IMG/VR virus record: IMGVR_UViG_3300033420_000012
Coordinates: 1 to 42,170 of that record
From: a virus
Lineage: Duplodnaviria > Caudoviricetes
Strand: one strand, 5' to 3'
DNA length: 42,170 nucleotides
The translations under genes were made by a program, and so were the position numbers. Below the pieces are notes generated by a model. That model saw only the letters and a list, made by a program, of their open reading frames with translations, made no database searches and was not told where the DNA came from. This document shows, one piece after another, positions 8,494 through 41,257 of the stretch; the first letter of the stretch is position 1, and the number at the start of each line of letters is the position of its first letter.

Positions 8494-9459
8494 ATGCCTA
8501 CTTACAATTGACTTAAAGCGAGTACGTCCACTTCTGCGGATGCTTTTACAGATTTCTTGAATAGGAAAGTTTTAGATAATTTTGAACCAAGCCTTGTGTT
8601 TAGTCAATTTTCTGAGACACCTATTTCTGATGCTGGTACTGATGAAGTTATTTGGGCAAAAATGCCTGCTTTCAATGCTTCTCCTGCACAGGTTGAGCTT
8701 CTTGATGGCGAAACGCCTCCTCCTATTTCCTACACTGTTGACACGATCAAGACTACTTCGAAAGAATATGGTCTTTACGCTGTCATCACGAAGAAAATGA
8801 ATAAGAAAGTTGCATTTAATCTTACGGAGAAAATTGCAATGAATCTTGGAGAGAACATGGCGAGAATTATCGACACTGTCTATCAAATGGAAGTTGTTGA
8901 TAACGCTACAAATAGAATCTATGCGTCAACGACCTCAGGTGGTACTAGAGCCGCTAATAGAGCCGCTATGACTGGTATTACTTACAAAATGTTTACGTAC
9001 GATATCGCAGCTGCTGTTACGACACTTCGTGCTCTTAATTCTCCAACCTTTATGGGTGGCCATTATGTCGGTATCCTCCATCCTTTGGTTGCTCACCGAA
9101 TTTCGACAGATGTTGGTACTGGTGGTCGGTTGGCTATCAAACAATATACTGTTGAAGGTCAAGGAAGCATCTATCGTGGTGAAATTGGTATGATCCACGG
9201 TGCGAGAATTATCGTGTCATCTAATATCAAAACATATGCGTCAACGACTACTGTTTATCCTTCTGTGTTCCTCGGAAAAGGTGCGTATGGTGGTACAACG
9301 TTAGAAGCTCTTCAAACTATCGTCAAGCCTTTTGGCTCAGGTGGTACAGAAGATCCTTTGAACCAAAGAATGACTGAAGCTGTTAGTGTTTCTTTTGCTT
9401 GCAAAATCTTACAACAGAACTCAATCGTTGTATTTGAATCTGCTGGTGCAACTCCATAA
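8494..9459 (+). CDS. Major capsid protein, N4-gp56-like (321 aa)
   Basis: YVGILHP, GEIGMIHGARII and GSGGTEDPLNQR motifs; position after scaffold. Confidence 0.9.
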
Positions 9460-9510
9460 CAAACGGCAACCCTCTAATGTTTCCTTTTTATCTCTTTCCC
9501 TTTCTTTTTT

Positions 9511-10296
9511 ATGACTCCTAATTTAACTGATAGTCAGACTTCCTTCAAGTCTAATAGGATTGCAAGACAAATGCAAGAAAACTATATGATCGAAAATTTC
9601 AAAAACCTTCCTATGGGTTCTTTGATTTCTGGTAAAGGTATTCCTGTTGTCACTGATGCTACGTATAATCTTTTGTATGTAGGTGCAAGTGTCCTTTATA
9701 CATGGAATATCAATGCACAAGCTTTGATTATCCCTGCATATAATGCGAATGGTTTGGATATTTCTATGGACCAAACTGCTGGTGATGGAATCGAAATCTC
9801 TCCTGCTTATGGTGTCAATGCGAATACAAGATTTGGTTTCGTTATCGATACTGCTCCTAAGGGTTTCTTCGTAAGAGCAAAGATTTCTGTATCTGATGTG
9901 TCTGATGTTGCTGAATTGTCTGTTGGGTTTAGAAAGAACGCTACTGCGGCTAATGCTCTTTCTTCTCATACTGATTATGCTCTTTTGCAATTGATCGCTG
10001 GAGATATCAAGACAGAAACTAGATTGAATACTGGTACTGCTAGTACTGTCGATACAACTCTTAATTGGGCTGATGCTGGAACATACACTCTCAGAGTTGA
10101 TGTTGCTGTGAATGGCAAAACTACGTTTACCGTTCTTGATAGTAATGATGTTGTTGTTTCTACTGGTTTTGTTTCTCAAGATTTCCAATTTGACACTGGT
10201 GATACAGTTATCCCTTGTATTAGACAAATTCTCGGAACTGATGGGACTTGTTCTATCATCCTTAAAGAATTTGAATGTGGATACCAACATGTGTAA
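9511..10296 (+). CDS. Putative virion structural/decoration protein (261 aa)
   Basis: Beta-rich ORF right after the capsid gene; no TGA; codon usage similar to the capsid gene. Confidence 0.65.
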   Translation: MTPNLTDSQTSFKSNRIARQMQENYMIENFKNLPMGSLISGKGIPVVTDATYNLLYVGASVLYTWNINAQALIIPAYNANGLDISMDQTAGDGIEISPAYGVNANTRFGFVIDTAPKGFFVRAKISVSDVSDVAELSVGFRKNATAANALSSHTDYALLQLIAGDIKTETRLNTGTASTVDTTLNWADAGTYTLRVDVAVNGKTTFTVLDSNDVVVSTGFVSQDFQFDTGDTVIPCIRQILGTDGTCSIILKEFECGYQHV

Positions 10297-10308
10297 TTTT
10301 TCCAATAC

Positions 10309-10350
10309 GTGGGGGCGGTCGCATGGGATCGTCCCCATTATTAGATCTTT
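10309..10350 (+). terminator. Hairpin after the capsid genes
   Basis: TGGGGGCGGTC/GATCGTCCCCA stem followed by T-rich sequence. Confidence 0.5.
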
Positions 10351-10377
10351 TGCTTTTTATCTTTTTTCTTTTCTTTC

Positions 10378-11337
10378 ATGGCTTTTACTACAGTTCAACA
10401 CATTGTCGATTATGCAAAATCTCTCGCTGGTGTCGATGCCGTTCAAGGTATAGACAATTTCTGTTTGGAGCTTTTGAATGATGCCCATCAAGTCCAGATG
10501 GAAAAAACCAAGCTTCTCGAAGAGAACTATATCGAGACACAACAGGTCATAAGTGCACAGCCGTATACGAATGAGTATACGCTTGCGACTGATGTCGATA
10601 AGGTTTTGTTGGTCAATGTTTTGTATTCTGTCCCATCTGATTCTGCTTGGGTTACTGGTACTGCGTATGCGAAAGGTGCGAAAGTTACCGAGAGCGGTAA
10701 GAGATATATTGCTATGTCTGCGTTCACGTCGAAGACTACTTTTTTGAAAGATCTCGCTGGGTCTGAGACCGCTACTGCTTGGCTTCCTACTACGTCATAT
10801 ACGATCACTACGTCATATGTCTATTACAATGGCAAAGGATATCAATGTGCATCGACACACACGTCTGGGACTACTTTTGATGAGACGAAATGGACAGAGT
10901 TGTTTGTCGGTCGAAGACAGATTTATGAGGGGTATGTGCCCGCAAGAAAGATCAACCGAGAGAATAAGGCTGTTTCTGCTTACAACCAATATGTTGTTGA
11001 AAGCCCTGTCTTTATGTTCCAGAATAACAAGATCAAGATTTTCCCATATCCTACTGTTGCCGTTACTGAATGATTGCTTTTGGTATATTCCCAGAAGGTC
11101 ACTGACTTGACGCTTGCGTCTGCAACATCGTTGCTTGGGTTCGATCAGAGATATTGGAGATTGCTTGCAAGTGCGATTGTACCTGGTATATTCCAAAGTC
11201 TCCAGCAAGATCAGAGAATGCAAAATGCTATTGTGACCTACAATAACAAATTGCTTGAATATCTGAAATATACAAACAATCGTTATGAGACTGCGGAAAC
11301 ACAAATCTTGCCTGATCTTTCACATTATGCTAAATAA
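10378..11337 (+). CDS. Head-tail adaptor-like protein with inserted carbohydrate-binding-like modules (319 aa)
   Basis: Adaptor-like N-terminus (LELLNDA) and IKIFPYP C-region; internal AWVTGTAY..G..V and AWLPTTSY..VYYNGKGYQC..THTS repeats. Confidence 0.65.
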
Positions 11338-13613
11338 TGGCAAAATCTACCTGAATCAATCGAAATGCAACGACATATAGCCCCACTACTTCCGTAGGTG
11401 CTGGGGCTGTTTCTGGTTCTGGTATGAAGACATTGAATAGGGTGACACGTGGTGGCAAGAAACTTGGCACTGGTTCGATTCCTGCGAATATGACTGAGAG
11501 TGGTTTTAACACGATGCAAGCGTTTTATCCTGGGCAAGATGCTTTGGCTCTTGGTGGTGTGGTTGCTGGGATGCCTAATAAGTTTGTCCCTGTGACTGAT
11601 GCCCCTTTGTTGAAACAGTTCGCTGGCCCTAATAAGTCCTTGCCATTGAATCCTGCTTTGTGAATCTGACAAATGAGTTATCTTGGTTGACCTTCTACGA
11701 CTTGAGCTGGTGAGTCTTTGTCTGTTGAGTGAAAGGTATTTATTCCAAAGACGACAAAGTCTGGCAAGAAATGATTCTATGTTGATGCCGAAAAGGCCGC
11801 TAAATATGGAGGTTGATATATTCCTGTGACACAGAAAGCTCCTGTTGTTGGCAAGAAAAAGAAGGAGTTCCCTGATATCCTGACCTCGATCGACAGTGTT
11901 TTGACGTCGGCAATCAATGCCGAGAACAAACGTAGTGCGAAGAGCAAGAAAAGCTTGCCTGCTGGTTTGATTTCTGACTCTGGCCAATCGTCTTATGTCC
12001 ACGTATCTGATCCGAAGGTGAAGATATCGAGAGAGAAGAAGACATTGCCCGCTGGGCTGGTTCCTGATGCTTGATCGTACACTTCCGTGTCTGACTCTCC
12101 TGTCGTTTCATCTGTAAAGGTAAATAGGAACTCTGCGGATACGCAAATCCTAGTTGCTGACACTCCTGCAATGAAGTCGACGAAGTCGAAGAATTGGGTT
12201 GTTGATAAGTTTTATGGGTGATTGTCTGATAATGATTGGGTTTCTAATACGACAAACTTTGCTGTTTCTGATGGGATCGATATACATGAGAATCCAAAAT
12301 ATATTACGTGTGCGAAAGGATTCACTGCTTCGGCTGTGATCTCCGATGGGATTATCATGAAGAAGTTGCTTTTGCCTTCTTCTGGTGGCCAGTATTACTA
12401 TTTTACTGCTAATGGTAAGATTTATGATGGAACCTTTACTTTGAAAGCCACACTGACTGGCAATTTGAAAATACTAAACGCCGAGATCTTTGGGAATGAT
12501 ATTTTTGTTGTGACTGCTGGCAAGATACATCGTATCACGTTTACGGGGAATGATTTCTCGACATTTGGTGCTTTGACGATGGACTATATATCTTACACTG
12601 CGGATACGCAGTGATTTGCTTCTGATAAAGCTTTGGAACGTCCTTGCTATAACGCTACTGACTCTATATTTTATCGAGGTGCTGGCAATAAGTTGTTTTC
12701 TGTTTTGGCATCTGCTCCTACGGTTGTGATCACAAATCTGACATATCAGAGAGGTACAAAGATTGTCTCACTTCGCTTTTTCAATGGTGATTTGCGTGTG
12801 TATTGTAACTATATGAACGAACAATGATTTTTGACATATTATGGTCCGAATGGAGAAAGTACGTCAGTTTTCAAGAACAAGTACTTTATTGCGACTACAT
12901 CGGATGGTATTTTGGATTATGCTTTGATGAATGACGGTATTTACCAACTTCGTGGATTCCAGTTAGAAAGGCTTTTTGCTCGTTCTTTTGAATGATATGG
13001 ATATCGAGGTAGTACGAATCTTCCCGCTCATAATCTGATTGGGACGGGGAAAAACTTCTTTTACTTTTTGGACTGATACTCGATTTATTCATACTGACGT
13101 ACGTCTGTATCTCTTCCCTATGCTTTGTGTAAGGTAGCGACATTGGCAACATATACGTCTTGCATACCTTCCTCTTTTGGTGCTAATCCCTTGAACGTCT
13201 TGGGTTTTGATTTCAAGAATTATGTGCAGGATTCCACAAGTTATCATGGTGTCGGTACGATAGAATCTATCTATTTTTATGGCGGTGGGAACGAAGAGAC
13301 TGGTAAAAATAAGGATTTTCCCGAGACGATGAAGTCATTGAAGAAGGTTATTTGACAGACATTATATTCTCTTATCCCGACTGGATGTTCTGTGAAATTG
13401 GAGTTTTCTGTGGATGGTGGTGCGTATGAGACGATCGGAACGTATGTGACGGCGAATACTGGTTTGGTGCATATTTCATCTGTGAGCTATCCAAGGACAT
13501 ATCATCGATGCAAGATAAAGTTGACCCTGACTCCCTTGACGACTGCTTCTCCGAAAGTGTTTGATTATACACAGTTTTATGATATTATTACTCAATGGGT
13601 CAATGCTAATTAA
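11337..13613 (+). CDS. Tail nozzle/stabilisation-like protein with low-complexity N-terminus (758 aa)
   Basis: Six track fragments fall in one frame joined by TGA; beta-propeller-like C-terminal part; position after adaptor. Confidence 0.6.
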
Positions 13614-15225
13614 AAACAAACTTACAAAGACTTTGATTGGCGAGCAAGGTTGAAAGGACTTGTCCGTTTTGGCTACTGATGAGGTCATTCCTGACACTCC
13701 TCCTGTTACGATTCCTGTATCTCAACAGTGATTTCCTTTGCCTTTGTGAGAAAACTTGCCGTTTGGCCAGGCTGTACAGGTGGGGAATGACAACGGTGTT
13801 GGTAAAGCATATAATGTGTGATCTTCCGTCACCTCTGTTTCTGGTCCTATTCTTCTTGAAGAATTACCTTGATATTATACAGATTCTATTGTTTATGACG
13901 ATTCTACTATATTTTCCACGTATTGAAATTCTGTTTTCGTCAAAAAATATAATTCTTCTTTAGATGATGGTAGCCAGACTTCTCCGTTTGTTTCTTCTAC
14001 CACATATACTATTTCTTGAGTTACTGCCTGAGATAATTTGAATAAGTTTTGCAAATCTTCCGACTGAACTATCTTTATTTTTTATAAAAAGACATATTTT
14101 GAAGTTACTACTCATGTTTACTGTCGTCGTGTGTTCTATGATGGTACTACCTTAACTTTTTCTTCTGAGTATGATTTTAATGCATGAACTCCTATTTGAT
14201 GATCTCCCGAATCTTTTACCGTCTGACCTTGACCTGCTGGCAGTGTTTACTTATATTATTGCTATAAGGTCACTACAGTTTGATATCTTGGTTGTTCCGC
14301 TATTTCTTATAATTGATCTGCTGTTGTTGCGTCTTCTCCTGTCTCTTTTACGCTTACCCCTTTTTACAACTCTCCTGCTTTTTATGCGAATTTTTCTTAT
14401 GCATCTACTTGATATTATGATTCCGTAAATTGATATCATTGATGTCTTTTTTCTTATGCTGATGTTGTTGGTAATGCTAGTACTCCCCTTGTGTATTTTG
14501 TTTCTATGACTGGTGGTGCCTTTACCCCTTCGTCCGCTTTCTCTTCCTCTGTCACAAGTTTATGATTCAAAAAAGATAATAATACTTATTGATCAGTTGT
14601 CTGTATTGGTTTTGACCCCGATAGTCTAGTTTATTTTTTTTGTAGTAGGTATTCCCCTTCTTTTATTTATTATACTCGTTTATCTTCTTCTTGATTTTGA
14701 TTTTCTACTGTTTCCTCTCCATATAATGTTTGAGCCAATAATTATTGTTTTTATGATACCTATAATAAAAAGTCTTATTTTTCCTGATATCATAATTTCA
14801 TTACTCAAAAGATTGCACAAATTACCTTTTCCGCATCTGTATTTTTTTCTCTTTTATACTTTATCACGGTTCATACTTACAACTACAATAATGCCAACTA
14901 TACTTTTCTATTTACTCCGTACTGATTTATCTTAAACTGATTCTGATACTCTGGTAGTTCTGGTGAATGATCTATCCGAACTTCTTACAGATACTTCGTT
15001 CTTGATTCTCTTTCTGCTGTAGTTGGTCTTCTTTCGCAATGATGACAGGCTGGCGATATAAGGTATATCTTCCCGACTGGTTCGATCCTTGAGTGATTTA
15101 CTGGTAAAGTTTCTTGATCTATTTGATACATACAGTCTAATTGAACTATCTCTTGAATTATAACTCAATATCCGTATTGACGCTTTATATCCTCGACAAA
15201 GTTCCTTGTGGAAAGAATGTTTTAG
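13603..15225 (+). CDS. Tail/receptor-binding virion protein (540 aa)
   Basis: No TAA/TAG over 1.6 kb but many TGA; S/Y/F/G-rich beta composition. Confidence 0.7.
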
Positions 15226-15243
15226 TTTTTATCTTTTGTTTTC

Positions 15244-15816
15244 ATGCCTAAACAAGTCAAAACAGACTACGATATCATTTCCCAGAAATACTTACATAGC
15301 GACTTCGATACGCTGTGAAATGCTTTTTTTCGTGGTGACTTTCTTTTTGTTGGTGGATATTGTTGGGAAAAGTTTCCTCCAGAATCTCGTTTTGCTTTGA
15401 TGGATGATTTCAAAACTTTTATTGAAAACTTTGTGAGCTCATACGTGTATTCCAATGCGTGTCTGGATGTTATGAAGCCACTGGAGAAACAGTCGACAGC
15501 TAAGCTCGCTGTGTATCCATTACAAGCCATTTTGGAGAATTATTATATGAAGATGTTCTGATCGTTACCTGTTGATGACGAAATCAAGTTGCAACAAATG
15601 AGATTGCAATCCCAATGGAATAAAGTAAAAGCTAGTGCGAAGCAAATTATGGATGGAATAGATAAATACAAGGTCTCTTGTTACCGTCTTTCTGCTCCGC
15701 TCCCGATTAGTGCTATTTTCTATGATATTTCTACTCAGATTGATTCTTTTGTGAAAGATTATATTGATTACTCGTCCATGGTCGGATCTTATGAAAAATC
15801 TCTTTTTAGCATATAA
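15244..15816 (+). CDS. Hypothetical protein (190 aa)
   Basis: Open with two TGA; pyrimidine leader. Confidence 0.7.
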
Positions 15817-15827
15817 CCTCTTTTTCT

Positions 15828-16487
15828 ATGACAAACTACATTTCATTGTCTCTGTCTTTGTTTTTACAGATTCCTCGCTCGTACAAGACTGGTGATCGTG
15901 TCATCGACATTACCCAAAATACGACACGAGAGTATCAGAATGATCATTGGGTCGATCTCGAATGCCTGTATCTTCCGCAGGGAGAGAAAGGAGAAAAAGG
16001 CGATACTGTTCCTTCTAACGATATTGTCAATGCTCTCATCGGGTCTGATGCTTTTCTTGCTCTTGTAAAAGGTGCGAAGGGAGAAAGGTGATTGAAAGGT
16101 GAGAAAGGTGATACTGGTACTGACTGTGTTTCTCCGTCTGTCGATGAAGTTGCTACCAATCTGTATCCCAAACTTCTCGATAGCGAAATCCTTCTTGAAA
16201 AGATAAAAGGGGAGAAATGAGAGAAGTGAGAAAAGGGCAATGATGGCGACACTGGTCCACAGTGATTGCAATGAGAGAAAGGCGAGAAGTGAGAGCCTGG
16301 TGTTTCTCCAAAAGTTGACTACAGCACGCTTGCACTTTCTGTCGTCCAGATGTTGAAGAATGACAAAGGGTTTATCGAGCTTTGTACTGGGCCACAAGGG
16401 CCACAAGGCGAGAAGTGACCACAAGGAGAGCAGTGAAGATCTATAAAGGGTGACAAGGGCGATGCTGTTTTAGTTCCTACTTCTTAA
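15828..16487 (+). CDS. Collagen-like (Gly-X-Y) fibre protein (219 aa)
   Basis: GEK/GPQ triplet runs in which TGA falls on the Gly positions. Confidence 0.9.
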
Positions 16488-16491
16488 TTTT

Positions 16492-16755
16492 ATGGCTCAA
16501 GTTATGTCACAACCTGAAGAAGAACTTTTGTCGTCATGACAAATGCTTTTTCGTAAAAAAAGATATTGGGACGCTATCAATAGCTTGGAATATATTTGCC
16601 ATGCTCGTGCTGGTTCTAGTTTGAATGATTTGGCGTGGAGAATCTACAAAACGCACTATGATGCTGATTGAAATCTTGAAGAATCCCGAGTCTCGGAAAA
16701 TTTTAATTGTTCCATCCCCGACATTTTGACGGTGGCTGGGTATACTTACATCTAA
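16492..16755 (+). CDS. Small virion-associated protein (87 aa)
   Basis: EYICHARAGSSLNDLAWRIYK; stop overlaps the next start (TAATG). Confidence 0.7.
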
Positions 16756-18824: not shown

Positions 18825-18825
18825 C

Positions 18826-19821: not shown

Positions 19822-19843
19822 TTTTATTTTTTTCCTTTCTAAA

Positions 19844-20119
19844 ATGACAACAGAAAAAATCCAAGAAATTGCACAGCTATTTATAGCGAATCCACACCTT
19901 AATCCCACTGGGGTGATGTATGGATACATTTTTGGTATCTATGCCGAGAATGAACACTATAGTGTCGAGGAAATAAGAGCCATAAAAGACACCGTCGTGA
20001 CACTTACTGCTCCAGTCGTTACTGACCCTCCTATGGAGTTTCCTGTTATAGGTGAAGAGCCAGTAGTCCAACCAACCATGGAAGAGATAGTCCAATTACT
20101 TTTACCTATTGCCCCATAA
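19844..20119 (+). CDS. Hypothetical protein (91 aa)
   Basis: ATG after pyrimidine leader; coupled TAATG with the next gene. Confidence 0.7.
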   Translation: MTTEKIQEIAQLFIANPHLNPTGVMYGYIFGIYAENEHYSVEEIRAIKDTVVTLTAPVVTDPPMEFPVIGEEPVVQPTMEEIVQLLLPIAP

Positions 20120-21381: not shown

Positions 21382-21389
21382 AATAAACC

Positions 21390-28581: not shown

Positions 28582-28613
28582 TCCATTTTTATCCTTTCCC
28601 CTTTTCCCCTCCC

Positions 28614-29237: not shown

Positions 29238-29247
29238 ATCTTCTTCC

Positions 29248-30429: not shown

Positions 30430-30453
30430 ATTTATCTTTTCAAATTTACTTTT

Positions 30454-32551: not shown

Positions 32552-32580
32552 TCAGTTTTATTATTTTTCTTTTTTTTCTC

Positions 32581-33018
32581 ATGCTCCATGTTGTCACTTC
32601 TCCGCTCTTTGTTCGTACTGCTAAAAAAGAGACAGGGAAAAAATACCGGATAAACCTAAACAACTTCAACAAACGGAAAGGTTATGGATATAACAATATC
32701 AAGAAAGCATACTGTGATCAGATAGCTAAACAACTTGTCTGATTGAAAATTGACTGATCTCTTGAGATCTCGTACCAACTAATCCGCTATTACAAAGTTG
32801 GTAAGGGTAGGAAAGATAAATGAAATGTTTTGTCGGCGATCCAGAAGTTCTTTTTGGACTCTCTCGTCGAGTTGTGATACCTTCCCGACGATAATGATGA
32901 AATGATAGACAAAGAAATCTTTCCAAAACCCGCATATATTCAAGACAAGCTAAAGACTGCTGACGATAGTGTCGTCGTTATTACACTTACTACCAAAGAC
33001 GATATTCGACGTGTCTAA
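32581..33018 (+). CDS. RusA-like Holliday junction resolvase (145 aa)
   Basis: D.GN.....K...D.L...G...DDN catalytic pattern. Confidence 0.8.
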
Positions 33019-33074
33019 TTTGAGACCTTGCTTATCGTTTCACCTATGTTTTATTTTTCTATCTTCTTTTTTTC

Positions 33075-34142
33075 ATGGTCAAAACCCAAAAAAATGGCGT
33101 AGTCGCCGAACCTGTCGAGACTGTTGTGTCTCAAGAAACTGTCGAACCTGTTTTCGATGTTGATGCACGAGATGAGTGAGATTTGCCGTCAAGCATGGTC
33201 AAGTCGCTTGTGCCAAATGCTCCGTATGAGTGAGCTGTTATGAAATCAAACTATGATCTTGACGCCTCTTTTGAGACTGACGACATGGACGATTTCGAAA
33301 GAACATTGCTTGCAATGCAAGGATGATCGACCTCCTCTGTCGCCACTCTTCGCTACAAAAGAGAGACTGACGATCAATGAGTTGTTACCTTTCAGGGGCT
33401 CATTGCTTCACGCCAAGGTGAGAAGACGAGAATATCCTGAGTTGAAAAAGTACAGTCAGGTCCAAACGCTCTTCCGTTGGAAACTCCTGTCATTATTCTT
33501 TTTAGAACCGAGAAGTATGATTTATGGGAAAAGGTAGGGAAAAAGAGCGATGCTCGTGGCAATTCTACCGAGTTCTTTCCAAGTATGAATCAGGTCGTTT
33601 TCACACATTATCCAATGTGACCATCGCCAAAGATGCCAAACGGTGAGTATATGCCGAAAGAGGATGTCCCTTTTGAAAACAAACATTTCAAATCGTTTAC
33701 TGATCTCAAGGAATATATGAAAGCTTTGAGGGCCGACGATTCTACTTTGAAACCTGATTGGATTATCGTTGTGTATCTCCTTTTCAAAAATGAGTTTAAC
33801 GAACGAGAACCTGCAAAAATGTATCTCAAATATACACAGTCCGCAGGTGCCAAATATGTTGGCGAAAAGGTAGTTGCTTTGCTTAACGATCCATTGCCTG
33901 GCACTTTGAAGAAACTTGATCGTGTCTATCGTACGCCTGTCCATATTCAAAAAACTTTCTCGATGAAATACGGTTGTTACAAGATGGGTGATACAAGTTT
34001 TGTCTCGTATCCTACCTTTGAAGCCGTAAACGCTACCGATCGTCCTAGTAATGACGTTTTGAAGTGACATTTGAGAGACATAATGGTTGATCTTACAACG
34101 AAATTAAAGACAAAACTTTCTGCTCCTTTTTTACCTGCTTAG
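33075..34142 (+). CDS. Hypothetical protein (355 aa), possibly ssDNA-binding/recombination
   Basis: Long open frame with TGA; function inferred from context only. Confidence 0.65.
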
Positions 34143-34152
34143 TTGTTTTCCT

Positions 34153-34605
34153 ATGTTACTTTATCGTATCGAGCCAAAAAAACACATTGTCCCTCTAACG
34201 TGACACCTGACTTGGTCTTGGTTTTGTGAGGTGTTTGATATAGTTCCAACGATAAAGCGTCTAAATTGGTATCGCAAGACGTGGGGGTTGCCGTTTATCC
34301 GTCTCCCCCACCCTCGCGAGCTATCTGATCATTTCGCTGACTTTTATGTTATGGATGCTCCAGAATTCAAAACGTGGCTTCATGAAAAAGCCCCTAATCT
34401 TTTACCTTTTTTCTCTTTTCGCAAATGCCACATCAAATCCCAGAGGGTCTTGAGTGATCTGCTCTTACAGATCTTGACCAAGCAATTACACAAGTTAAAG
34501 ATAGTCTTGCCGAAGCCGACAAATTCGCCTGACGTATTACCGATGGTGACTTCTCACCAAACACACACGGTTTGTTGAGTTTCCACAACAGGAGACTTTT
34601 CTTAG
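34153..34605 (+). CDS. Hypothetical protein; 3' end uncertain (overlaps next gene)
   Basis: Fills the gap after 34142 but runs 180 nt into the next ORF. Confidence 0.35.
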
Positions 34606-34916
34606 CATGATATGCAATCAAAATGAAGATGATCGAAGCCGAAAGGCTTTTGAAACATAAAAGGGTCGAGCTATCCGCATACTTTATGTCCGATGCTTAT
34701 ATTGTCGAGTCTCTTTGAAAGCCTTTGGCGAAGACTCCTGCGGACCAGAAAGCCAAAGACGATACTATTGATGAGCAAGCGTATATCGATCGCCTCGATA
34801 ATAATCATGAGTTATTGACTGGGTTTGCTAAACTTTACAATGAATCCTTGCAAATGGCTCGTGTAGCGATGGCAAAGACTGATGTTTCCCCTCGTGGCGA
34901 TATGGCTAGTATTTAG
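34425..34916 (+). CDS. Helical hypothetical protein (163 aa)
   Basis: Pyrimidine leader; in frame with track ORF 34725-34916. Confidence 0.7.
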
Positions 34917-34936
34917 TTTTTAACCCTCTTTCTTTT

Positions 34937-35185
34937 ATGATCCTTTCTCTCATATTTATTATTTCTGGCGTTCTTATTTGATACGTCGCTGGTAATGTCT
35001 ATCCCTACTATTTCTATGATTATGATGACGATGATGAAACAAGAGCTTTATTGAAAAGCTACGTTGCATTGTCAAACCGTCTTTTGAGACACTTGAGAAA
35101 CCTAAAAAAGCTCCTTGCTGATCGCAAACAGGATAATGATGATTTACTTGTTAAAAAGCTTATTGATGATTCCACATCGAAATAA
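34937..35185 (+). CDS. Small membrane-anchored protein (82 aa)
   Basis: Hydrophobic N-terminus; pyrimidine leader. Confidence 0.6.
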
Positions 35186-35498
35186 CGATCGTGAGTTGGT
35201 ATGGTTTGAGGGGGTATTCATGCAAAAGCATGTTGCCTCCATTTTCTTTGATCGTGGTTTTCATCCTGGGGAGATTGTGACATGCGAGTGTTGTTATAAA
35301 CGTCAGGCTGTTGATGTCGCACACATATACTGACGTCTAGGTGATAACTACATAGATCCTGCCCATCTGATATATATGTGTCGCTCTTGTCATTACTCTT
35401 TCGATGTTCGCCATAGGTGGTCACGTGATGATATCGCCAAACGTGTTGCCGATACAAGGGAACGTAGGAAAGAAGTTATTGCTTTACTTGGTAGATAA
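35166..35498 (+). CDS. HNH-like endonuclease (~110 aa)
   Basis: CECC...VDVAH....L..MCRSCH pattern. Confidence 0.7.
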
Positions 35499-35531
35499 AA
35501 AGAAAAGCCCCCTTAATTGGGAGGCTTTATA
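35497..35531. terminator. Bidirectional terminator between convergent operons
   Basis: A run, then AAAGCC..GGCTTT hairpin, at the convergence of + and - genes. Confidence 0.65.
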
Positions 35532-35897
35532 TTATCTTAAATCTCTATTGTCCGTTGTATTTCATACTATTTTCATTTCATCTACATCTATTATATCGAA
35601 TGAATCCTCCGACGTTAGCGTATTTATTTCAAACCTTGCTCGCGTCTCATCTCGTCTTACTTCGTATAGTGTATAACATCAACAGTTTCCAAATTCTTCT
35701 CTTAAAATGTCTCCAAAATATATCTCTTGTTCTTCTTTGTCTAAAAGTCATATAAATTGTCAAATTGAGTCTTCTTCTACTTCCGTTTTTGTTTCTGTTT
35801 TTCGATCGTGTATGTATGTTTTTTTTTGTTCTCCCATTAGACTTCCATAAACTCGTTTCCCCTTCTTCGTCTTTCATCTGAATTTTATTGTGTGCAT
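35532..35897 (-). CDS. YopX-family protein (121 aa)
   Basis: IKFRGK...GKWVYGSL, IGQFIGLLDK..EIY.GDIL and IVGN..DN motifs (require TGA=Gly and CGA=Trp). Confidence 0.85.
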
Positions 35898-35917
35898 TGT
35901 AAAAAAAAAGTAAAGAA

Positions 35918-36154
35918 TTAAAAAGGTCTTTGGACCTGGTACATTGTGATTATTTTCTGTTTGTCTTCGCTCAATATGTAGGTTCTCCATCATTTGGTCC
36001 ATATCCTGTATTTTCCATCATCTAGCTTTTTGATTGATACGACATTTCTCAAGTCTTCTTTAGCCTGCTCGGTATCTCCGAACTCTGCCATGGTTCTTTG
36101 ACACAGTTTAGCTTTTGCGTGTCCAGTAAATGAAATACTATCTATGATGCTCAT
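35918..36154 (-). CDS. Small protein resembling DUF4258-type folds (78 aa)
   Basis: FTGHAK.KL.QR N-terminus and IIT.Y C-terminus. Confidence 0.55.
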
Positions 36155-36234
36155 CGTAGTTTTAAAGTGAAGAAGTAAAATAGCCGTCACTTGGCAAAGG
36201 GTGGGTGGTGGGCTGATCCGCCTGGCGGTCAGGT

Positions 36235-36483
36235 CTATCCAATATATCTTTCTTCGCGATCCCCGCTTGGTACGTCCTCCCAAGTTTTGTACCCAAATTT
36301 TCCCAAGATCATAGTGTCCCATGGTTTCAGGTCTTCGCCTGGGCGTTTTCGTGGCTCTTCTTTAAGCTCCTGTTTGCTAATTTCCGCAAGCCTTCTTTGG
36401 ACGTTTGATCGGCTGTAAGGCTCCTTCTCGCCATAAGCCAACCTTTCGATTGATTGGTTTTCTGTTTGGATTGTTTCATACAT
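36235..36483 (-). CDS. Hypothetical protein (82 aa)
   Basis: ATG with conserved leader; TAG stop. Confidence 0.7.
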   Translation of the reverse strand: MYETIQTENQSIERLAYGEKEPYSRSNVQRRLAEISKQELKEEPRKRPGEDLKPWDTMILGKFGYKTWEDVPSGDREERYIG

Positions 36484-36507
36484 GAAAAAGTTGTGAAAAG
36501 ATAAAAA

Positions 36508-36672
36508 CTAAAAACATTTTCAACAAATACAATTTTTAATCACTCATCATTCTACATATCATTCACATACTTCTTCTATTATGTCTCTCAATTGTCCTTC
36601 TGATATTATATATCTTCATTCCATCATTGAGAAGTTTCTCAATTTCTCTATTATTTTTTTTGTGTAGTCCAT
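36508..36672 (-). CDS. Hypothetical protein (54 aa)
   Basis: Leader identical to that of 36483 (TTTTTATCTTTTCACAACTTTTT); open with TGA. Confidence 0.6.
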
Positions 36673-36690
36673 AAAAAAGTTGTGAAAAGA

Positions 36691-36717
36691 TAAAAAAGGC
36701 GAGTTTTTCGTACTCGC
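36691..36717 (-). terminator. Possible intrinsic terminator
   Basis: GCGAGT/ACTCGC stem followed by a T run on the - strand. Confidence 0.45.
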
Positions 36718-36779
36718 ACGCTTACGAGGCGACGCTGTCCTTTTGATTGGGGGATAGAAAACCATGAGGAAAAAATATA

Positions 36780-37772
36780 TTAAATCAATCTTCATGTTGT
36801 CCCATTGTTCTTTGCTTTCGCCAATGGATATATAGATGATCCCTTTGTCTCTTCGATTTCTCTCATAAAGTCTTGTATGTCTTTTATGTCTGATATTTTT
36901 CTGTTGATATCTCTGACCTTGTTTTCGATTGCTCTATCTTTTGCCCTGTCTTTCCTGTCTTGCCGTCTTTTCATTTCTTCCTCGTTGACTTCAATTTGTT
37001 CACTCATTATCTCGATCATATTTCTGCCGTCATATTCTAGCTCTGCAAGTTCTTGTCGTTTGTCGTTTTGTACCAAAATTAATCTTCTGCCAAGTTCCGC
37101 TTTTTCTTCTTCAAATTCCTTGATTGCAAGTTTCCCTTTTCTTCGTGCTTCTCTTGTTTTATTTTTTAGGTATTCCAAAGCTCCACCTTGTCAGAAGTCG
37201 ATCTTGATTTTTGCGTTTTCCATTCTTTCCATTTCGTATCGTGTGGCTTTTTGTCCTCCGTATTGCATCAACAAAAAAGCCTCCATTTCTCGTTTTTCTT
37301 TTTGTTCGTTTGGGCGGGTTCCGCAACCTTCGGTAATAATAAACTCTTTGTTATGATAGCCAAGTTTTACTTGTCGTGTTTTGTACATCTCGATTTCGTG
37401 ATCGTGTGCTCTTGCTTCTTTTTCGACTGTTTCGATAAAGTCACAAGTTCCATATAGTCGGAGTGTGCAAGACCCGCAATATCAAGACTTTTTTTGACTG
37501 TCTCTCTCTCGTTGTGACATTGATGTCTCCGCTCTTGTATAGCAATTTTCACCGTGTGTTACTTCTTGCCTAAGTTTGAGATTTCCAAGATTTATTTGCT
37601 CGGTGTCTATTCCTTTGATGTCGTAACGTCCAAAATTCTTTTGTCCGCCTCCGTTGAAATTGATCAGATGGACGAACCGCCTTTTTTCTGCGATGATTTT
37701 CTCGCCGTCTCTTTCTTGAATGATCAGGTCGTGTCCGTTGCCTGTGAGTGTTGCTGTTTTGATTGATGCCAT
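36780..37772 (-). CDS. Hypothetical protein with CxxC and C-terminal coiled coil (330 aa)
   Basis: Track ORFs 37482-37772, 37191-37388 and 36792-37178 form one frame joined by TGA. Confidence 0.75.
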
Positions 37773-37806
37773 GTGAAAAAAAAAGTGAAAAGAAATAAAA
37801 AGGTTT

Positions 37807-37974
37807 TTAGTTTATAGGTGCAAGCTCTGTTTCTCGAAATATGTGCCCACTTATTCGATACGCTGGCTTATTGTCTTTGTCTTTTATTATGCCTTCGATT
37901 TTTCCTTGGTTGTTCCGCTTTTGTAGACATTTGATTTTTACTATTTGTCATATTTTGAATTTTGCTTGTGTCAT
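37807..37974 (-). CDS. Small SH3/KOW-like protein (55 aa)
   Basis: KFKIGQIVKI..G.I.GI pattern; conserved leader. Confidence 0.6.
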
Positions 37975-38001
37975 AGGAAAAGTAGGGGGAAAAAATAAAG
38001 G

Positions 38002-38313
38002 TTAGTCTCCGACGTACTGTGCAAGGTTTTCTCTTACCATGATAAGATGACCATGGTTCTCTTTTGCTATTCTTGCCTCTTCGATGTTAGCTGTCACCTG
38101 TGAGCTTTTGGACAAGATCCGCATTTCGCCCTCGATGTAGTATTTGCCGTTTTTGGTGTCCCAAAGTCGACCCCATCCATCATAAAGCTGGATTGGTTCG
38201 AGAAAAAGCCGTTGTTCTGCCCCTGATTTTGGGTTTTGGCTTTTTATATAAAATAATCCGTTGTTTTGTGCTTTTCTTAATTCTTCTTTGGTGCAAGTGA
38301 TTGTGCCTTTCAT
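38002..38313 (-). CDS. Hypothetical protein (103 aa)
   Basis: Track ORF with leader; TAA stop. Confidence 0.7.
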   Translation of the reverse strand: MKGTITCTKEELRKAQNNGLFYIKSQNPKSGAEQRLFLEPIQLYDGWGRLWDTKNGKYYIEGEMRILSKSSQVTANIEEARIAKENHGHLIMVRENLAQYVGD

Positions 38314-38342
38314 GTGAGAAAATTGGTTAAAAAATAAATTTG

Positions 38343-38684
38343 TTATATTGTTGATATTTCTAGTTTTTCTGCAAATTCGTTTAATTCTATTAGTTGATCT
38401 GCAAGTTCTTCATGTGATGTCCGGTTTAATTGGTAGCCTGTCGCAAATTGTGCAAACACGTTGCGTCATAATATTCTCTTGTGTATGTAAAATTTTAAAT
38501 CTTCGGGATCTTCGTTTCATGTGTCTCTGTCGCAATAATACTTTAATGGTAGCATATCTTGTTTATCATTATTAAACATAAAATCTATACTTTCTATCCG
38601 TCTATACGCTTTTTCTCCTTTGTTGCTTTTTATTACTTCGTGAAATACGAGTGTTTTGATTATGTTTTGCTTTTGTGTTGTCAT
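38343..38684 (-). CDS. Hypothetical protein (113 aa)
   Basis: Conserved leader TTTATTTTTTCCCCCACTTTTCC; open with two TGA. Confidence 0.65.
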
Positions 38685-38712
38685 TGGAAAAGTGGGGGGA
38701 AAAAATAAAAAG

Positions 38713-38826
38713 TTATATCATCTTCTGTAATCTGTATCTATACTCCTTTATGTCTGATCTGCGTTTGTCTTCTCTCAATATGAGGAATGCCAACACTGGC
38801 ACCCCCAACAATAGAATCATAAACAT
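38713..38826 (-). CDS. Small membrane peptide (37 aa)
   Basis: Hydrophobic N-terminus; coupled TAATG with the upstream gene. Confidence 0.5.
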   Translation of the reverse strand: MFMILLLGVPVLAFLILREDKRRSDIKEYRYRLQKMI

Positions 38827-39260
38827 TATATAGTGTGGTTAGGAGATAAAAGGGTCATTTCTTCCGTCTGGTATTGTGCAAAGAATGCCTTGAAAGTGAA
38901 ATTGAAAGGCTTGTCTTCATCTTTCCCAAACATTGGTATTGCTAGGTAGCAACCTTTTGATCCTTTCTTTATTTTCCTTCCTTGGTTTCTCCATTGGTTG
39001 CTGGTGCCGTAGGTGCTGGCTGTGTATCATACGCCGTTCTCGTCTCTTTGCTCTATGAGTGTTTTTATGTTGTTTATGGAAAAGTCTTTGCCTCATACCT
39101 CGGAAATCTTAAAAAATCCCCCTGCAAGTATGCCCTGTAACATTGCCAGATTGTCCCCATCTAGCTCGGCAAGCTTTGTTTTTGCTGATCTTTCGGCGAT
39201 GATCCTGTTTTCTGTTTTCTCAAATACTTTCTTTTCTTCTTTTTTTTGTGCGTAAATCAT
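38826..39260 (-). CDS. ArdC-like ssDNA-binding domain protein (144 aa)
   Basis: FS..N...L..Q and YGTSNQWRNQGRKIRKGSKG motifs. Confidence 0.75.
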
Positions 39261-39343
39261 GATAGAAAAAGTGTTAATAAATAAAGAGTGGCATGGTCTC
39301 GTCAGAACGAACCCCCTGCGGGGTGCTGGTCTAGGTGTAAAGT

Positions 39344-39439
39344 CTAATCTGATGTGTAAAGGTCGATCATGTCTGGGTCTCAATCTCTGAGATCATCGAC
39401 ACAAATCGCCTGTAGCTCTGTACGTAATAACTGCGACAT
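39344..39439 (-). CDS. Acidic peptide (31 aa), first ORF of the leftward operon
   Basis: Canonical pyrimidine leader, ATG, TAG stop. Confidence 0.45.
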
Positions 39440-39576
39440 GAAAAAGTGAAAGGAAAAAATAAAAGAAGCAAGCTGTCTGGATGGCGAGTGACTGGATGAC
39501 TAATGCACCCTATGGCGTGGGTCTCCCCCGAGTCGTCTAACTCGTCCGCCGTCTCTCTCTATCTGATGACCCCCAG

Positions 39577-39604
39577 ACTATAATCAAAAAAGTCTAAAAA
39601 TCAA
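39577..39604 (-). promoter_or_regulatory. Leftward early promoter
   Basis: TTGATT-N16-TATAGT on the - strand. Confidence 0.6.
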
Positions 39605-39624
39605 GGGAAAATGTCGAAAAAAGA

Positions 39625-39652
39625 TAGACAAAAGGTATCAATGTGATATAAT
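39625..39652 (+). promoter_or_regulatory. Rightward promoter
   Basis: TAGACA-N16-TATAAT. Confidence 0.5.
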
Positions 39653-39715
39653 ATGCAAACAATGAAACCGTAGGTCACAAGCCAAAAGAAAATGCAAAAA
39701 AAGTCCAATAATCCC

Positions 39716-39743
39716 TTGCAATCTCAAGAAAAATCAGTATATA
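39716..39743 (+). promoter_or_regulatory. Rightward promoter
   Basis: TTGCAA-N16-TATATA preceded by AAAAAAGTCCAA, as at 24.6 kb. Confidence 0.5.
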
Positions 39744-39787
39744 GATGATGAACAAAAAAACTCTCTATCTCCTAACCCTCTAACACC

Positions 39788-40042
39788 ATGTCACAATCTG
39801 AAACAATCAAAAACCTCCAAACACAAATCGAGCAAGTCAAGGGCTACCTCCCAAAGATCAACGCCGAACGTCGTCAGCTCCACATGTCAGTCAAAAACGG
39901 TACGACTGCCGATGAACTCCCAGTAAGATACTGGGAACTCACCAACATCAGAAAAAGAGGTGAGAGTATCATCGAAAGAAATACAAGACGAATCAAGGAA
40001 ATCATAAACAATAAAATGCAACCTATGGCACTCTGGGCGTAA
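39788..40042 (+). CDS. Helical hypothetical protein (84 aa)
   Basis: Track ORF downstream of promoters; TAA stop. Confidence 0.75.
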   Translation: MSQSETIKNLQTQIEQVKGYLPKINAERRQLHMSVKNGTTADELPVRYWELTNIRKRGESIIERNTRRIKEIINNKMQPMALWA

Positions 40043-40219
40043 TGGTCACGCTCCGCTCTGTCTCTCCTCGTCAGGCTGTCGGAATGGTAGCGACCAGCTA
40101 AAAACAAAAAAACGGGCGAATAGCCCGATGACCGCCTGTGCTGTGGTCTCTGTCTCTGACGGATGAGATATAAAAACGAGATAACAAATAAACTCACACC
40201 CCTAAACAGTTGTTAGAAT

Positions 40220-40355
40220 TACGGAATCCTGACCGCTGTCGTACCCCAAAACAATCTGAAAGTGGCTCGCCCCCCAACGTGATAGCTACGGAATCCTGAC
40301 CGCTGTCGTACGTTGAGACAATCTGAAAGTGGCTCGCCCCCCAACGTGATAGCTA
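40220..40355. repeat. Two 67-nt tandem units differing only in a 6-nt window
   Basis: TACGGAATCCTGACCGCTGTCGTAC-[CCCAAA/GTTGAG]-ACAATCTGAAAGTGGCTCGCCCCCCAACGTGATAGCTA. Confidence 0.95.
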
Positions 40356-40399
40356 AATTGGCTTTATACCTTGTTTTATTTCCTTACCTCTTATATTCT

Positions 40400-40441
40400 A
40401 TGGCAAAGAAAACAACCAAGAAAGGCTGAAAAAAATGCTAA
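40400..40441 (+). CDS. Basic micropeptide MAKKTTKKGGKKC (13 aa)
   Basis: Canonical pyrimidine leader, ATG GCA start, TAA stop. Confidence 0.45.
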
Positions 40442-40447
40442 TTGCTC

Positions 40448-40475
40448 TTGCAATTTGGGACTAAATCATTATAGT
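40448..40475 (+). promoter_or_regulatory. Promoter
   Basis: TTGCAA-N16-TATAGT. Confidence 0.6.
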
Positions 40476-40479
40476 CCTG

Positions 40480-40545
40480 TTGCGATCTGTTAGAGGGTTG
40501 CAAGCTGTTTTCCCTCCTCGTGCGTCTACATGGGAGGGTTTTCTT
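40480..40545 (+). ncRNA. Candidate ~65-nt small RNA
   Basis: Starts after the promoter; hairpin TTGCGATC/GGTTGCAA, then CCCTCC/GGAGGG hairpin plus T run. Confidence 0.4.
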
Positions 40546-40780
40546 ATTTTACGAGAAAATGTCTACGTTATGCCAAACTTGTATTTGATTCCGACATTGA
40601 TGTCCCCATGATAGGGAAAAGTGGGAGGAAAAAATAAACTGTATTCTCCCCAATGAGTGTAATGAGTGTCTTCGCCGTCTTCTGTTTTTTCTGCTATTTT
40701 GTTTTTTGTTTTTTTCTCGCCCGCACGGAGTGCGGGAGATCCCAGTCTGTGAGCCAGCTTTGAGGCTTGCCGAAAATGCC

Positions 40781-40808
40781 TTGATTTTATTGTAAAAGTT
40801 CGTATGAT
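40781..40808 (+). promoter_or_regulatory. Promoter upstream of terS
   Basis: TTGATT-N16-TATGAT. Confidence 0.6.
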
Positions 40809-40846
40809 AGATAAGGTGAGAATTTTATCCTTAAAAACCCCTTTTT

Positions 40847-41257
40847 ATGCCTATTTTAGAGAAGTCCCGAAGGGATGACCCTGTCAAATGTACGAGAGTG
40901 GAGAGCGTGCTCGCCCTCATCTCCAATGGGTATTGTGTAGGTGACGCCTTCATTAGAGCGAAGTTGCCGAAGACAACTATGAGGGGGCGAGTCGGTACGG
41001 AATATGAGGAATTGATTAAAGAGGCGGTTGCAAACCGAAGAATGCAGGTCAGCGACGTAGTTTCTGAGAAGATGAAAAAGGATTGATCCCTTGCTTTTAG
41101 AGTTCTCCAAAAGCTTGATAAGCGTTATTCCACCAAGAAAGAAGAGGCTCCCGAACAGAATCACCTAGTAAACATCTTTGTCAACTCTTATAGACAGACA
41201 ATGTGACTTGCTCCACTGCCAGAGGCAGGGATTATGGATTGAGATTTGGTGTCATAA
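40847..41257 (+). CDS. terS: Probable terminase small subunit (136 aa)
   Basis: HTH-like AF.RAKLPKTTMRGWV, then D..LAFRVLQKLD..Y; upstream of terL on the circle. Confidence 0.65.

Follow-up and report, generated by a model that had tools for sequence, protein, structure and literature searches.

Codon usage of the phage genome

How many codons has this phage reassigned? The window, by which we mean the whole 42,170-nt stretch analyzed, is a tailed-phage genome (Caudoviricetes; IMG/VR record IMGVR_UViG_3300033420_000012), and an initial annotation had proposed that CGA and CGG are read in it as Trp in addition to TGA being read as Gly. PHROG matches show genes for the major capsid protein, the large terminase subunit, lysis, and replication, which identifies a tailed dsDNA phage. 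The recoded coding genome extends over 2042..41257 on both strands and was represented by 47 curated ORFs (11,930 codons), the starts of which were picked by hand. Stop-to-stop frame coverage rose from 0.60 to 0.98 when TGA was read through, compared with only 0.80 for TAG and 0.88 for TAA. TAA or TAG ends all 47 ORFs because the ORFs were defined that way.

The curated ORFs contain 330 TGA, 87 TGG, 51 CGA, and 21 CGG codons, with in-frame TGA in 41/47 genes and CGA or CGG in 34/47. Trp makes up 0.73% of residues if encoded by TGG only and 1.33% once CGA and CGG are added. Recoded codons are found in genes of both the early and the late phase, among them genes for structure, lysis, and replication and the leftward accessory genes. 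CGA and CGG account for 24/77 Trp codons in the structural genes versus 18/23 in the leftward module, a skew that may reflect selection on expression level.

Codon-to-residue assignments

Codon meanings were scored with a home-made, Codetta-like pooled profile, which evaluates homolog columns per codon and is not Codetta itself. TGA fell into 40 columns with Gly, and neither stop nor Trp, as its meaning (Gly best by 53.5 nats), and code 4 (TGA=Trp) was rejected. CGA was assigned to Trp on 11 columns, 12.3 nats above Tyr and 33 nats above Arg. A Codetta-type check, which the initial annotation had put forward, was therefore positive for TGA=Gly and CGA=Trp, while CGG was represented by just two columns, in which Trp scored best at a posterior of 0.38 and Arg was 5.9 nats worse. 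The table-11 residue was recovered for 58/59 other sense codons; AGA, AGG, and CGC scored as Arg and CGT as Lys, so the pooled profile can err. Invariant arginines of the helicase and DnaB are encoded by CGT, and CGT, CGC, AGA, and AGG stay Arg. The Arg motifs named in the initial annotation use CGC, CGT, or AGA, as it had stated, and CGA and CGG were absent from all 24 motif arginines checked in the window.

A site-level swap table was compiled between the window and 16 related phage loci, with each site counted once. The window's own record (L013), the distant loci L001 and L002, and duplicates or near-duplicates (L006, L007, L009-L012, L021, L022, and L025) were dropped before counting, and L004/L014, L005, and L008 were replaced by G001-G003. 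The initial annotation had named alignment of CGA/CGG mainly to Arg or Lys as the pattern that would speak against it; the relatives carried TGG at 6 of the 13 CGA/CGG sites of the window and Arg or Lys at none. At window Arg sites the relatives carried Arg or Lys at 68/111 and TGG at 0/111. In the opposite direction, CGA or CGG of the relatives lay opposite TGG of the window at 14/35 sites and opposite Arg at 0/111 (Fisher P = 2e-10); the corresponding counts were 12/35 and 0/111 for CGA and 6/35 and 0/111 for CGG (P = 1.3e-4). Aligned homologs exist for a minority of the 72 CGA/CGG codons of the window, and some CGA sites are opposite neither Trp nor Arg (S/T, N/I/T, V, and D). Two CGT/CGC codons of the window were found opposite CGA in distant, unfiltered alignments to phage contigs in metagenome-assembled genomes (MAGs).

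Translation of CGA/CGG as Trp rather than Arg raised HMM scores for the capsid (+9.3 bits), endolysin (+1.3 to +6.4), YopX protein (+7.1), and initiator (+6.3). For fragments holding the CGG sites only, Trp gained +1.2 to +4.1 bits in 4/4 endolysin families and +3.0 bits in the capsid. Other models slightly favored Arg: Metallophos (37.3 versus 34.6 bits), DnaB_C (224.6 versus 223.7), phrog_100 (59 versus 57.4), phrog_267 (38 versus 35.9), phrog_98 (56 versus 53.7), and four RusA-like families, in which Arg was ahead by 0.1 to 1.0 bit. The reading of CGG as Trp is supported by the capsid codon at 9127, the endolysin fragments, and the family-level swaps, and is less thoroughly tested within the window than that of CGA.

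We regard the recoding as confirmed at the sequence level and estimate a probability of roughly 0.86 that TGA means Gly and CGA/CGG mean Trp across the entire genome, the decoding tRNAs likely being supplied by an Absconditabacterales (SR1) host.

Structural and lysis genes

The seven codons cited in the initial annotation (capsid 9127, fiber 16995, holin-like 23919, 28423, 30952, the YopX codon, and 40988) are all in-frame CGA or CGG. Aligned homologs were available for three of them (capsid, initiator-like, and YopX), each of which is opposite Trp, and homolog searches gave nothing usable for the other four. The terminase large subunit (2042..3598, + strand; PHROG phrog_2, E value 4.5e-17) has six TGG sites opposite CGA/CGG in relatives, and its CGA at 3521 is opposite Y, Y, Y, and CGG. 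Downstream lies a portal-like protein (3616..5502, +), named by position with no family match, in which CGA 4084 is opposite TGG in two relatives and CGA in four, and CGA 4840 falls in a variable column.

The N4-gp56-like major capsid protein (8494..9459, +), assigned by PHROG and homolog alignments, contains CGA 9097 (residue 202), which falls in an aromatic column, and CGG 9127 (residue 212). Residue 202 is opposite W14, Y11, R3, F2, H2, and S2 among 34 close homologs. Residue 212 occupies a Trp column, as had been claimed, with W23, R8, and L3 among the 34 close homologs and Trp in 31/49 distant capsids (W, F, or Y in 48/49). In the DNA of 13 related loci this column reads TGG in nine, CGA in two, CGG in one, and Leu in one. 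Database Arg residues at the capsid columns are likely mistranslated CGA/CGG codons, because the DNA there is never AGR or CGY. The database protein of the capsid itself carries Arg at both sites, in agreement with the earlier statement that code 25 alone mistranslates the genome.

A structural protein (11337..13613, +) has CGA 13506 opposite TGG (three relatives), CGA (two), and CGG (one), CGA 12675 opposite F (four) and CGA (two), and CGA 13005 opposite S/T. The tail-fiber-like protein (16755..18824, +) contains CGG at 16995, 18204, and 18495 and CGA at 17571; the latter is opposite T and T, and a homolog search gave no aligned homolog for the N terminus with CGG 16995. A holin-like small membrane ORF (23898..24095, +; CGA 23919) has a weak match as its sole PHROG match (E value 0.06), which appears with Arg and not with Trp, and its homolog search gave no usable homolog. 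In the L-Ala-D-Glu peptidase-like endolysin (24095..24565, +; CGG 24329, CGG 24362, and CGA 24374), Trp beat Arg in 4/4 shared PHROG families, also for the fragment holding the CGG sites alone. The putative terminase small subunit (40847..41257, +; CGA 40868, 40988, and 41036) was named by position only; two weak PHROG matches (E values, 0.033 and 0.057) were seen only with Trp, and no usable homolog was found by homolog search.

Replication and accessory genes

An sbcD and sbcC-like pair of the Absconditabacterales type, identified by homology, is located at 24893..28382 (+). At SbcC W657 and W717, both TGG in the window, host genes contain TGG/CGA/CGG in 45/24/5 and 42/26/2 cases, respectively. 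CGA 24929 of SbcD is opposite I11, Y7, H4, F2, K1, and V1. A 59-aa ORF follows (28402..28581, +; CGG 28423), for which a homolog search found none. The motif arginines of the SF2 helicase (29248..30429, +) are encoded by CGC, CGT, AGA, or AGG and never by CGA or CGG. Upstream of DnaB, an initiator-like protein (30454..31221, +) has CGA 30952, which is opposite Trp, as proposed, in 2/2 GenBank phage records. In DnaB (31184..32551, +), CGG 31964 is neutral, Trp and Arg scoring within about 1 bit with either sign. The YopX protein (35532..35897, - strand) contains four CGA codons and scores 44.3 bits against its Pfam model with Trp versus 37.2 with Arg; its codon at 35855-35853 (-) is opposite Trp in 3/4 homologs, again as had been noted.

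Related phages

At least 16 related phage loci were found, with capsids 54 to 62% identical. Two complete related genomes have the head/neck module in common with the window, but not the replication genes. We consider it probable that these phages belong to one widespread and as yet undescribed family of Absconditabacterales phages with genomes of about 42 kb, all of whose members would use the three-codon-reassigned code. In single-protein scans of viral contigs, the capsid returned just two distant loci, and the terminase, helicase, and two relatives' proteins returned none; alignment of the capsid against genome contigs gave no match. Besides the window's own proteins, homologs numbered two for the endolysin, four for YopX, and three for a 330-aa leftward protein. 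Arg residues of the homologs P0086 and P0130 at CGA/CGG columns are uninformative because both were visibly translated with TGA=Trp, and they were set aside as evidence for Arg. A PDB match was at chance level only and was discarded. The nearest GenBank matches of the initiator, YopX, fiber, and endolysin are in phages of unrelated hosts.

Host and decoding machinery

No tRNA genes were found in the window, an Rfam search of it was likewise empty, and no synthetase or release factor was detected among the 28 of 47 ORFs scanned in PHROGs. The SbcC Walker-A motif had 104 matches across the whole genome collection and was present in 105/141 genomes of the order holding SR1 RAAC1, to which it is essentially confined. 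Window SbcC is only about 30% identical to the host matches, and SbcD matches 39/41 genomes. Host SbcC genes contain in-frame TGA in 102/104 cases and the same TGG/CGA/CGG swaps as the phages. The earlier proposal of three reassigned codons is backed by homolog columns together with swaps in related phages and Absconditabacterales SbcC genes. By rules for Trp-type versus Arg-type tRNAs (G73, no A20) taken from PMC8629427, all 10 tRNA(UCG) found in 25 host loci read by eye look Trp-type, with G73 and without A20; these features were described in that paper and are seen again here. The two tRNA(GCG) seen in the same loci have A20 and A73.

Capsid-family genes occurred on phage contigs binned in 4/141 genomes of the SR1 order, which reflects binning rather than demonstrated integration, and no host flanks were seen in the MAG phage contigs examined. 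No CRISPR spacer-like match was obtained for window positions 1-40000 against the 141 genomes, with the best two candidates per genome scored; the search returned short AT-rich matches and sbcC/sbcD similarity only, and the two best short matches (28/29 nt, A-rich) were inspected and not accepted as spacers.

The lack of a phage tRNA, the SR1-type SbcC, and the Trp-type host tRNA(UCG) together indicate that the host's code is most likely in use, and the recoding is most likely that of the host, not an invention of the phage, which likely infects Absconditabacterales (SR1). UGA would be read as Gly by host tRNA(UCA), as is known for SR1. Host tRNA(UCG) (G73, no A20, A/G1:U72) would be charged with Trp and read CGA, as well as CGG by wobble, perhaps helped by tRNA(CCG), and CGU/CGC would be kept as Arg by tRNA(GCG). 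Coevolution of the phage family with the code would have lasted long enough that conserved Trp sites now interchange TGG, CGA, and CGG as synonyms. Its members would be confined to hosts with the same code, because a standard-code cell would truncate and mistranslate most of their genes.

Alternative explanations

If only code 25 applied, CGA/CGG would still be Arg and the Trp-like sites would have been chosen by eye. The small Arg-favoring HMM differences in SbcD, DnaB, RusA, phrog_98, and phrog_267 and the Arg of database homologs at some CGA/CGG columns fit this reading, which is nevertheless very improbable and, in terms of sequence, refuted by the swaps in related DNA: CGA/CGG are opposite Arg/Lys codons at 0/13 sites, Arg sites are opposite CGA/CGG at 0/111, and the codons seen in the capsid columns are TGG, CGA, or CGG, never AGR or CGY. 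It is also unlikely that CGA alone means Trp while CGG is Arg or ambiguous, or that both codons are part Arg and part Trp in a transitional code. The pooled profile has just two CGG columns, the DnaB and RusA CGG sites are neutral, and decoding ratios are not measurable from sequence; against this, the capsid CGG occupies a Trp column, CGG lies opposite window TGG at 6/35 sites and Arg at 0/111, two Trp columns of host SbcC contain CGG, and neither codon occurs at the 24 motif arginines.

A similarly small chance is given to the same code being used in Gracilibacteria (BD1-5) or another bacterium, with sbcCD acquired by an old transfer. CGG=Trp has been predicted for some Gracilibacteria (PMC8629427), the spacer comparison with the 141 SR1-order genomes gave no link, and several genes have their closest GenBank relatives in phages of unrelated hosts, but in the available text of PMC8629427 CGA=Trp is reported solely for Absconditabacteria, and the SR1 order by itself gives as many SbcC motif counts (105) as the entire collection (104). 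Least probable of all is that no codon is reassigned and CGG becomes UGG through C-to-U editing, a modified base, or a T/C miscall, or that a standard-code host is recoded by machinery carried in by the phage. A single C/T change does separate CGG from TGG, and phage code switches are known for stop codons (PMC10746230). Editing or miscalling was rejected because CGA would become TGA, which is opposite Gly (40 columns), yet CGA is opposite Trp; the same columns moreover hold CGA/CGG in independent assemblies and host genomes. A phage-borne switch was rejected because a tRNA is missing and recoding affects early genes as well as late ones; the 28 ORFs scanned in PHROGs likewise contained neither a synthetase nor a release factor. 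Decoding of CGA/CGG as Trp by an Absconditabacterales host remains our preferred reading.

Comparison with known recoded systems

The code with CGA/CGG=Trp and UGA=Gly was, as the initial annotation stated, earlier predicted for Absconditabacteria (Shulgina and Eddy 2021, eLife, PMC8629427); according to a 2026 paper (PMC13695967), the reassignments are not experimentally verified. The window has the same three codons and residues, with CGA likewise commoner than CGG. Host frequencies per 10,000 codons were <37 for CGA and mostly <7 for CGG in Pfam-aligned codons (PMC8629427), versus 43 and 18 in whole genes of the window, two figures with different denominators. In its available text PMC8629427 covers bacteria, and its only phages use AGG=Met; the window is a phage that very likely uses CGA/CGG=Trp. 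Those phages of recoded Bacilli resemble it in following a host sense reassignment without a tRNA of their own, but involve another codon, residue, and host, with no added stop-codon change.

The code-25 phages predicted to infect Absconditabacteria and Gracilibacteria (mBio 2023, PMC10746230) are, like the window, TGA-dense and share the host's code. As far as its available text goes, that study compared code 11 with code 25 by coding density only, and its main text has 0 mentions of CGA, CGG, or arginine; its hosts were linked by spacers, whereas the search with window positions 1-40000 gave no such link. The supplementary tables of PMC10746230 may include this contig or related ones. Stop-recoded phages with codes 4/15 in standard-code hosts (bioRxiv 10.1101/2021.08.26.457843) are, like the window, unreadable in code 11. 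Such phages often carry suppressor tRNAs (PMC10746230), while the window has none and recodes early and late genes and sense codons. A literature search turned up no published phage in which CGA/CGG are read as Trp.

No new code or mechanism is revealed by the window. The TGG/CGA/CGG swaps in the phage family come from another type of genome than the host data and back the host prediction independently. For assigning phages to uncultured bacterial hosts, the code is a near-diagnostic mark. Standard software mistranslates the proteins of the window, and databases mistranslate these phages, with Arg for Trp and with Trp or truncation for Gly. Test peptides are supplied by the capsid, which holds CGA and CGG ten residues apart, and if the reading is true, abundant virion proteins would be the easiest route to a first proteomic proof of bacterial arginine sense-codon reassignment. 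Phages would then have followed the CGA/CGG-to-Trp sense reassignment, a point we have not found in print, and the code would be a natural host-range barrier.

Codon content and placement of CGA and CGG

The genome, which spans the whole 42,170-base virus record, has a GC content of 39.4%, and its stop-to-stop frame coverage rises from 0.60 to 0.98 when TGA is read through, compared with 0.80 for TAG and 0.88 for TAA. In 47 ORFs curated by hand (11,930 codons), we counted 330 TGA, 87 TGG, 51 CGA, and 21 CGG codons; TGA occurs in 41 of these genes and CGA or CGG in 34. Tryptophan accounts for 0.73% of residues with TGG alone and for 1.33% after CGA and CGG are added. The initial annotation had placed CGA and CGG at tryptophan positions in seven genes, and all seven codons proved to be in-frame CGA or CGG: capsid CGG 9127, fibre CGG 16995, holin-like CGA 23919, small-ORF CGG 28423, initiator-like CGA 30952, YopX CGA 35855-35853 (minus strand), and putative terS CGA 40988. 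Its observation that conserved arginines avoid these codons was also borne out: of 24 arginines examined in motifs of the helicase, DnaB, endolysin, YopX, RusA, and HNH proteins, not one is encoded by CGA or CGG.

Usage is uneven. Of the tryptophan codons, CGA and CGG account for 24 of 77 in the structural genes (2042-23291) versus 18 of 23 in genes of the leftward module (35532-39260; Fisher P = 8e-5, for a split chosen post hoc). The TGA fraction of glycine codons is lowest in the head/neck genes (0.17) and highest in the tail/fibre genes (0.58). Differences in expression or in the age of the genes may underlie this skew; alternatively, part of the leftward-module CGA may represent unadapted arginine codons.

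Codon exchange in related phages

Related phage DNA was fetched via the capsid alignment and then widened to the full sequences of two 42-kb genomes and the greater part of a 21-kb record, giving a test set of 16 loci after removal of the window's own record and duplicates. Among 83 unfiltered pairs aligned at window CGA/CGG codons, the relatives carried TGG in 19, CGA/CGG in 19, Tyr in 11, Phe in 5, and other residues in the remainder, with Arg or Lys in none; CGA/CGG stood opposite window TGG in 40 of 203 pairs and opposite window Arg codons in 0 of 716. With each site counted once, CGA/CGG in relatives faced 14 of the 35 TGG sites of the window and none of its 111 Arg sites (P = 2e-10); taken separately, CGA faced 12 of the 35 and CGG 6 (P = 1.3e-4). 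Conversely, TGG was found opposite 6 of 13 window CGA/CGG sites and Arg/Lys opposite none, the predominance of Arg/Lys that would speak against reassignment being absent, while Arg/Lys faced 68 of the 111 window Arg sites.

Protein homologs and family models

In the capsid set (84 proteins, including the window's own entry with R at both sites), the CGG column held W23 R8 L3 in 34 close homologs and W31 F14 Y3 P1 in 49 distant ones, and the CGA column W14 Y11 R3 S2 F2 H2 in close homologs and mostly D (37/49) in distant ones. Tryptophan was opposite the initiator CGA in both GenBank phage homologs and opposite YopX CGA 35855 in 3 of 4; the remaining three YopX CGA sites lie in badly aligned stretches. 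Public collections give the proteins of these phages truncated or translated with TGA as W, and with CGA/CGG as R (e.g., proteins P0020, P0025, P0086, and P0130); therefore, false W and R contaminate the homolog columns.

Reading CGA/CGG as W rather than R raised scores for the capsid (phrog_1357, 119 versus 109.7), YopX (Pfam, 44.3 versus 37.2; phrog_8684, 51.5 versus 44.4), the initiator-like protein (39.3 versus 33), and the endolysin in four of four families (+1.3 to +6.4). CGG-only fragments gained +1.2, +2.4, +4.1, and +2.3 in the endolysin and, in the capsid, +3.0 in the best family, with -0.3 and -0.1 in two weak families. W scored modestly below R for Metallophos (34.6 versus 37.3), phrog_100, phrog_267, phrog_98, DnaB_C, and four RusA-like families. 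For the holin, the one weak match was present only with R.

The proposed Codetta check was run as a home-made, Codetta-like profile, with homologs' recoded codons masked and assumed background frequencies. It assigned TGA to Gly (40 columns) and upheld CGA as Trp (11 columns; lead of 12.3 nats over Tyr and 33 over Arg); for CGG, on 2 columns, Trp was the best residue (posterior, 0.38). Of 59 other sense codons, 58 received their table 11 residue; the exception was CGT, scored Lys, which we read as K/R exchange at variable sites, since invariant motif arginines of the helicase and of DnaB use this codon. RNA editing or T/C miscalling was rejected as an explanation because it would make CGA equal to TGA, which is Gly.

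The three reassignments (TGA to Gly, CGA and CGG to Trp) are supported by homolog columns and codon swaps, and the occurrence of CGA/CGG at Trp-type sites is confirmed at the sequence level. Judged from sequence, CGA almost certainly encodes Trp and CGG very probably does so.

Probable host and its tRNAs

Neither ARAGORN nor Rfam found a tRNA gene in the window, and no translation factor was found among 28 ORFs scanned. Single ARAGORN calls in two related phages, tRNA-Phe GAA (L023:3088-3161) and tRNA-Ile AAT (L035:3622-3711), are not for recoded codons. The window contains an Absconditabacterales-type sbcD and sbcC-like pair (24893-28382); the pair was found in neither of the complete related genomes and was likely captured from the host lineage. 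The SbcC Walker-A motif gave 104 matches in a species-level genome collection, where the named ones among the 80 titles listed were Absconditabacteria, SR1, Peribacteria, Gracilibacteria, or Patescibacteria. Within the order that includes SR1 RAAC1, 105 of 141 genomes carry the motif, whose matches are therefore essentially confined to this order. SbcC homologs are encoded at every one of the 104 loci, the best full-length ones being ~30% identical to the window's, and 102 of the 104 genes have in-frame TGA. At two window SbcC TGG sites, host genes carry TGG/CGA/CGG in 45/24/5 and 42/26/2 cases. SbcD was matched in 39 of 41 sampled genomes.

Four of the 141 genomes contain capsid-family genes, with portal or terminase neighbours in three; the contigs inspected resemble phage contigs binned with the genome more than prophages flanked by host DNA. 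Phage contigs of 37-40 kb lie within two SR1-order genomes (L167-L168, G048:C8; L169-L170, G049:C20); that of G048 has in-frame TGA, has CGA/CGG at what look like Trp positions, and encodes both an M23 peptidase and a C5 methyltransferase. No spacer-like match to window 1-40000 was found in the 141 genomes, the top two candidates per genome being scored.

By eye, host tRNA(UCG) from 25 fetched loci has G73, lacks A20, and pairs A/G1 with U72 in 10 of 10, features that Shulgina and Eddy (PMC8629427) take as criteria for a Trp tRNA; two tRNA(GCG) genes keep A20. With no tRNA gene found in the window, no translation factor among the ORFs scanned, an SR1-type sbcCD pair, and a Trp-type host tRNA(UCG), the phage likely uses its host's tRNAs passively, their charging and decoding being presumed. 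An Absconditabacterales host is highly probable.

Gene leaders and genome organization

Gene leaders (e.g., 8454-8493, 10338-10377, and upstream of 36780-37772) carry TTTA and a pyrimidine tract before the start, without Shine-Dalgarno (SD) sequences: TTTA lies at -30 to -11 in 86%, pyrimidine content is 80%, and SD-like motifs precede 0 of 42 starts, whereas the full set of 992 ATGs gives 13%, 52%, and 8%. TTTTATTT is common to leaders of related capsid genes. In host sbcC leaders (n = 70), SD is also scarce (1%) and the TTTA/pyrimidine motif rarer (44%).

A 51-bp tandem array, decaying to a 38-bp unit, extends across both contig ends (42002-42170 and 1-197), and the assembly may be unreliable at this junction. 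Positions 40220-40355 contain a 67-bp duplication, and the ~2.9 kb between putative terS and terL, without a convincing gene, may serve in packaging or as an origin. The best GenBank match to the initiator-like gene and the DnaB gene after it (30454-32551) comes from a Riemerella phage with the two genes in the same order, and the head/neck module is all that related phages have in common with the window; the genome is therefore a mosaic.

Relation to published codes

The UGA/CGA/CGG code has been predicted for Absconditabacteria, and CGG as Trp for some Gracilibacteria (PMC8629427). A 2026 paper gives the Absconditabacteria assignment again (PMC13092985), and another describes the arginine-codon reassignments as still without experimental verification (PMC13695967). 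The phage cases presented in PMC8629427 concern AGG as Met, unlike CGA/CGG as Trp here. Code-25 SR1 phages have been published (PMC10746230), in a main text that nowhere mentions CGA/CGG; the consulted text of a Gracilibacteria proteomics paper (PMC11452946) is likewise silent on them. Among the main texts covered, few of them from subscription papers, we found none describing CGA/CGG as Trp in a phage.

We place the probability that CGA and CGG both encode Trp and that the host is Absconditabacterales at roughly 0.86. The phage and its family of relatives follow the code already predicted for their likely host, a match that a specialist would expect, and the family provides independent support for that code and a route to its proteomic test.
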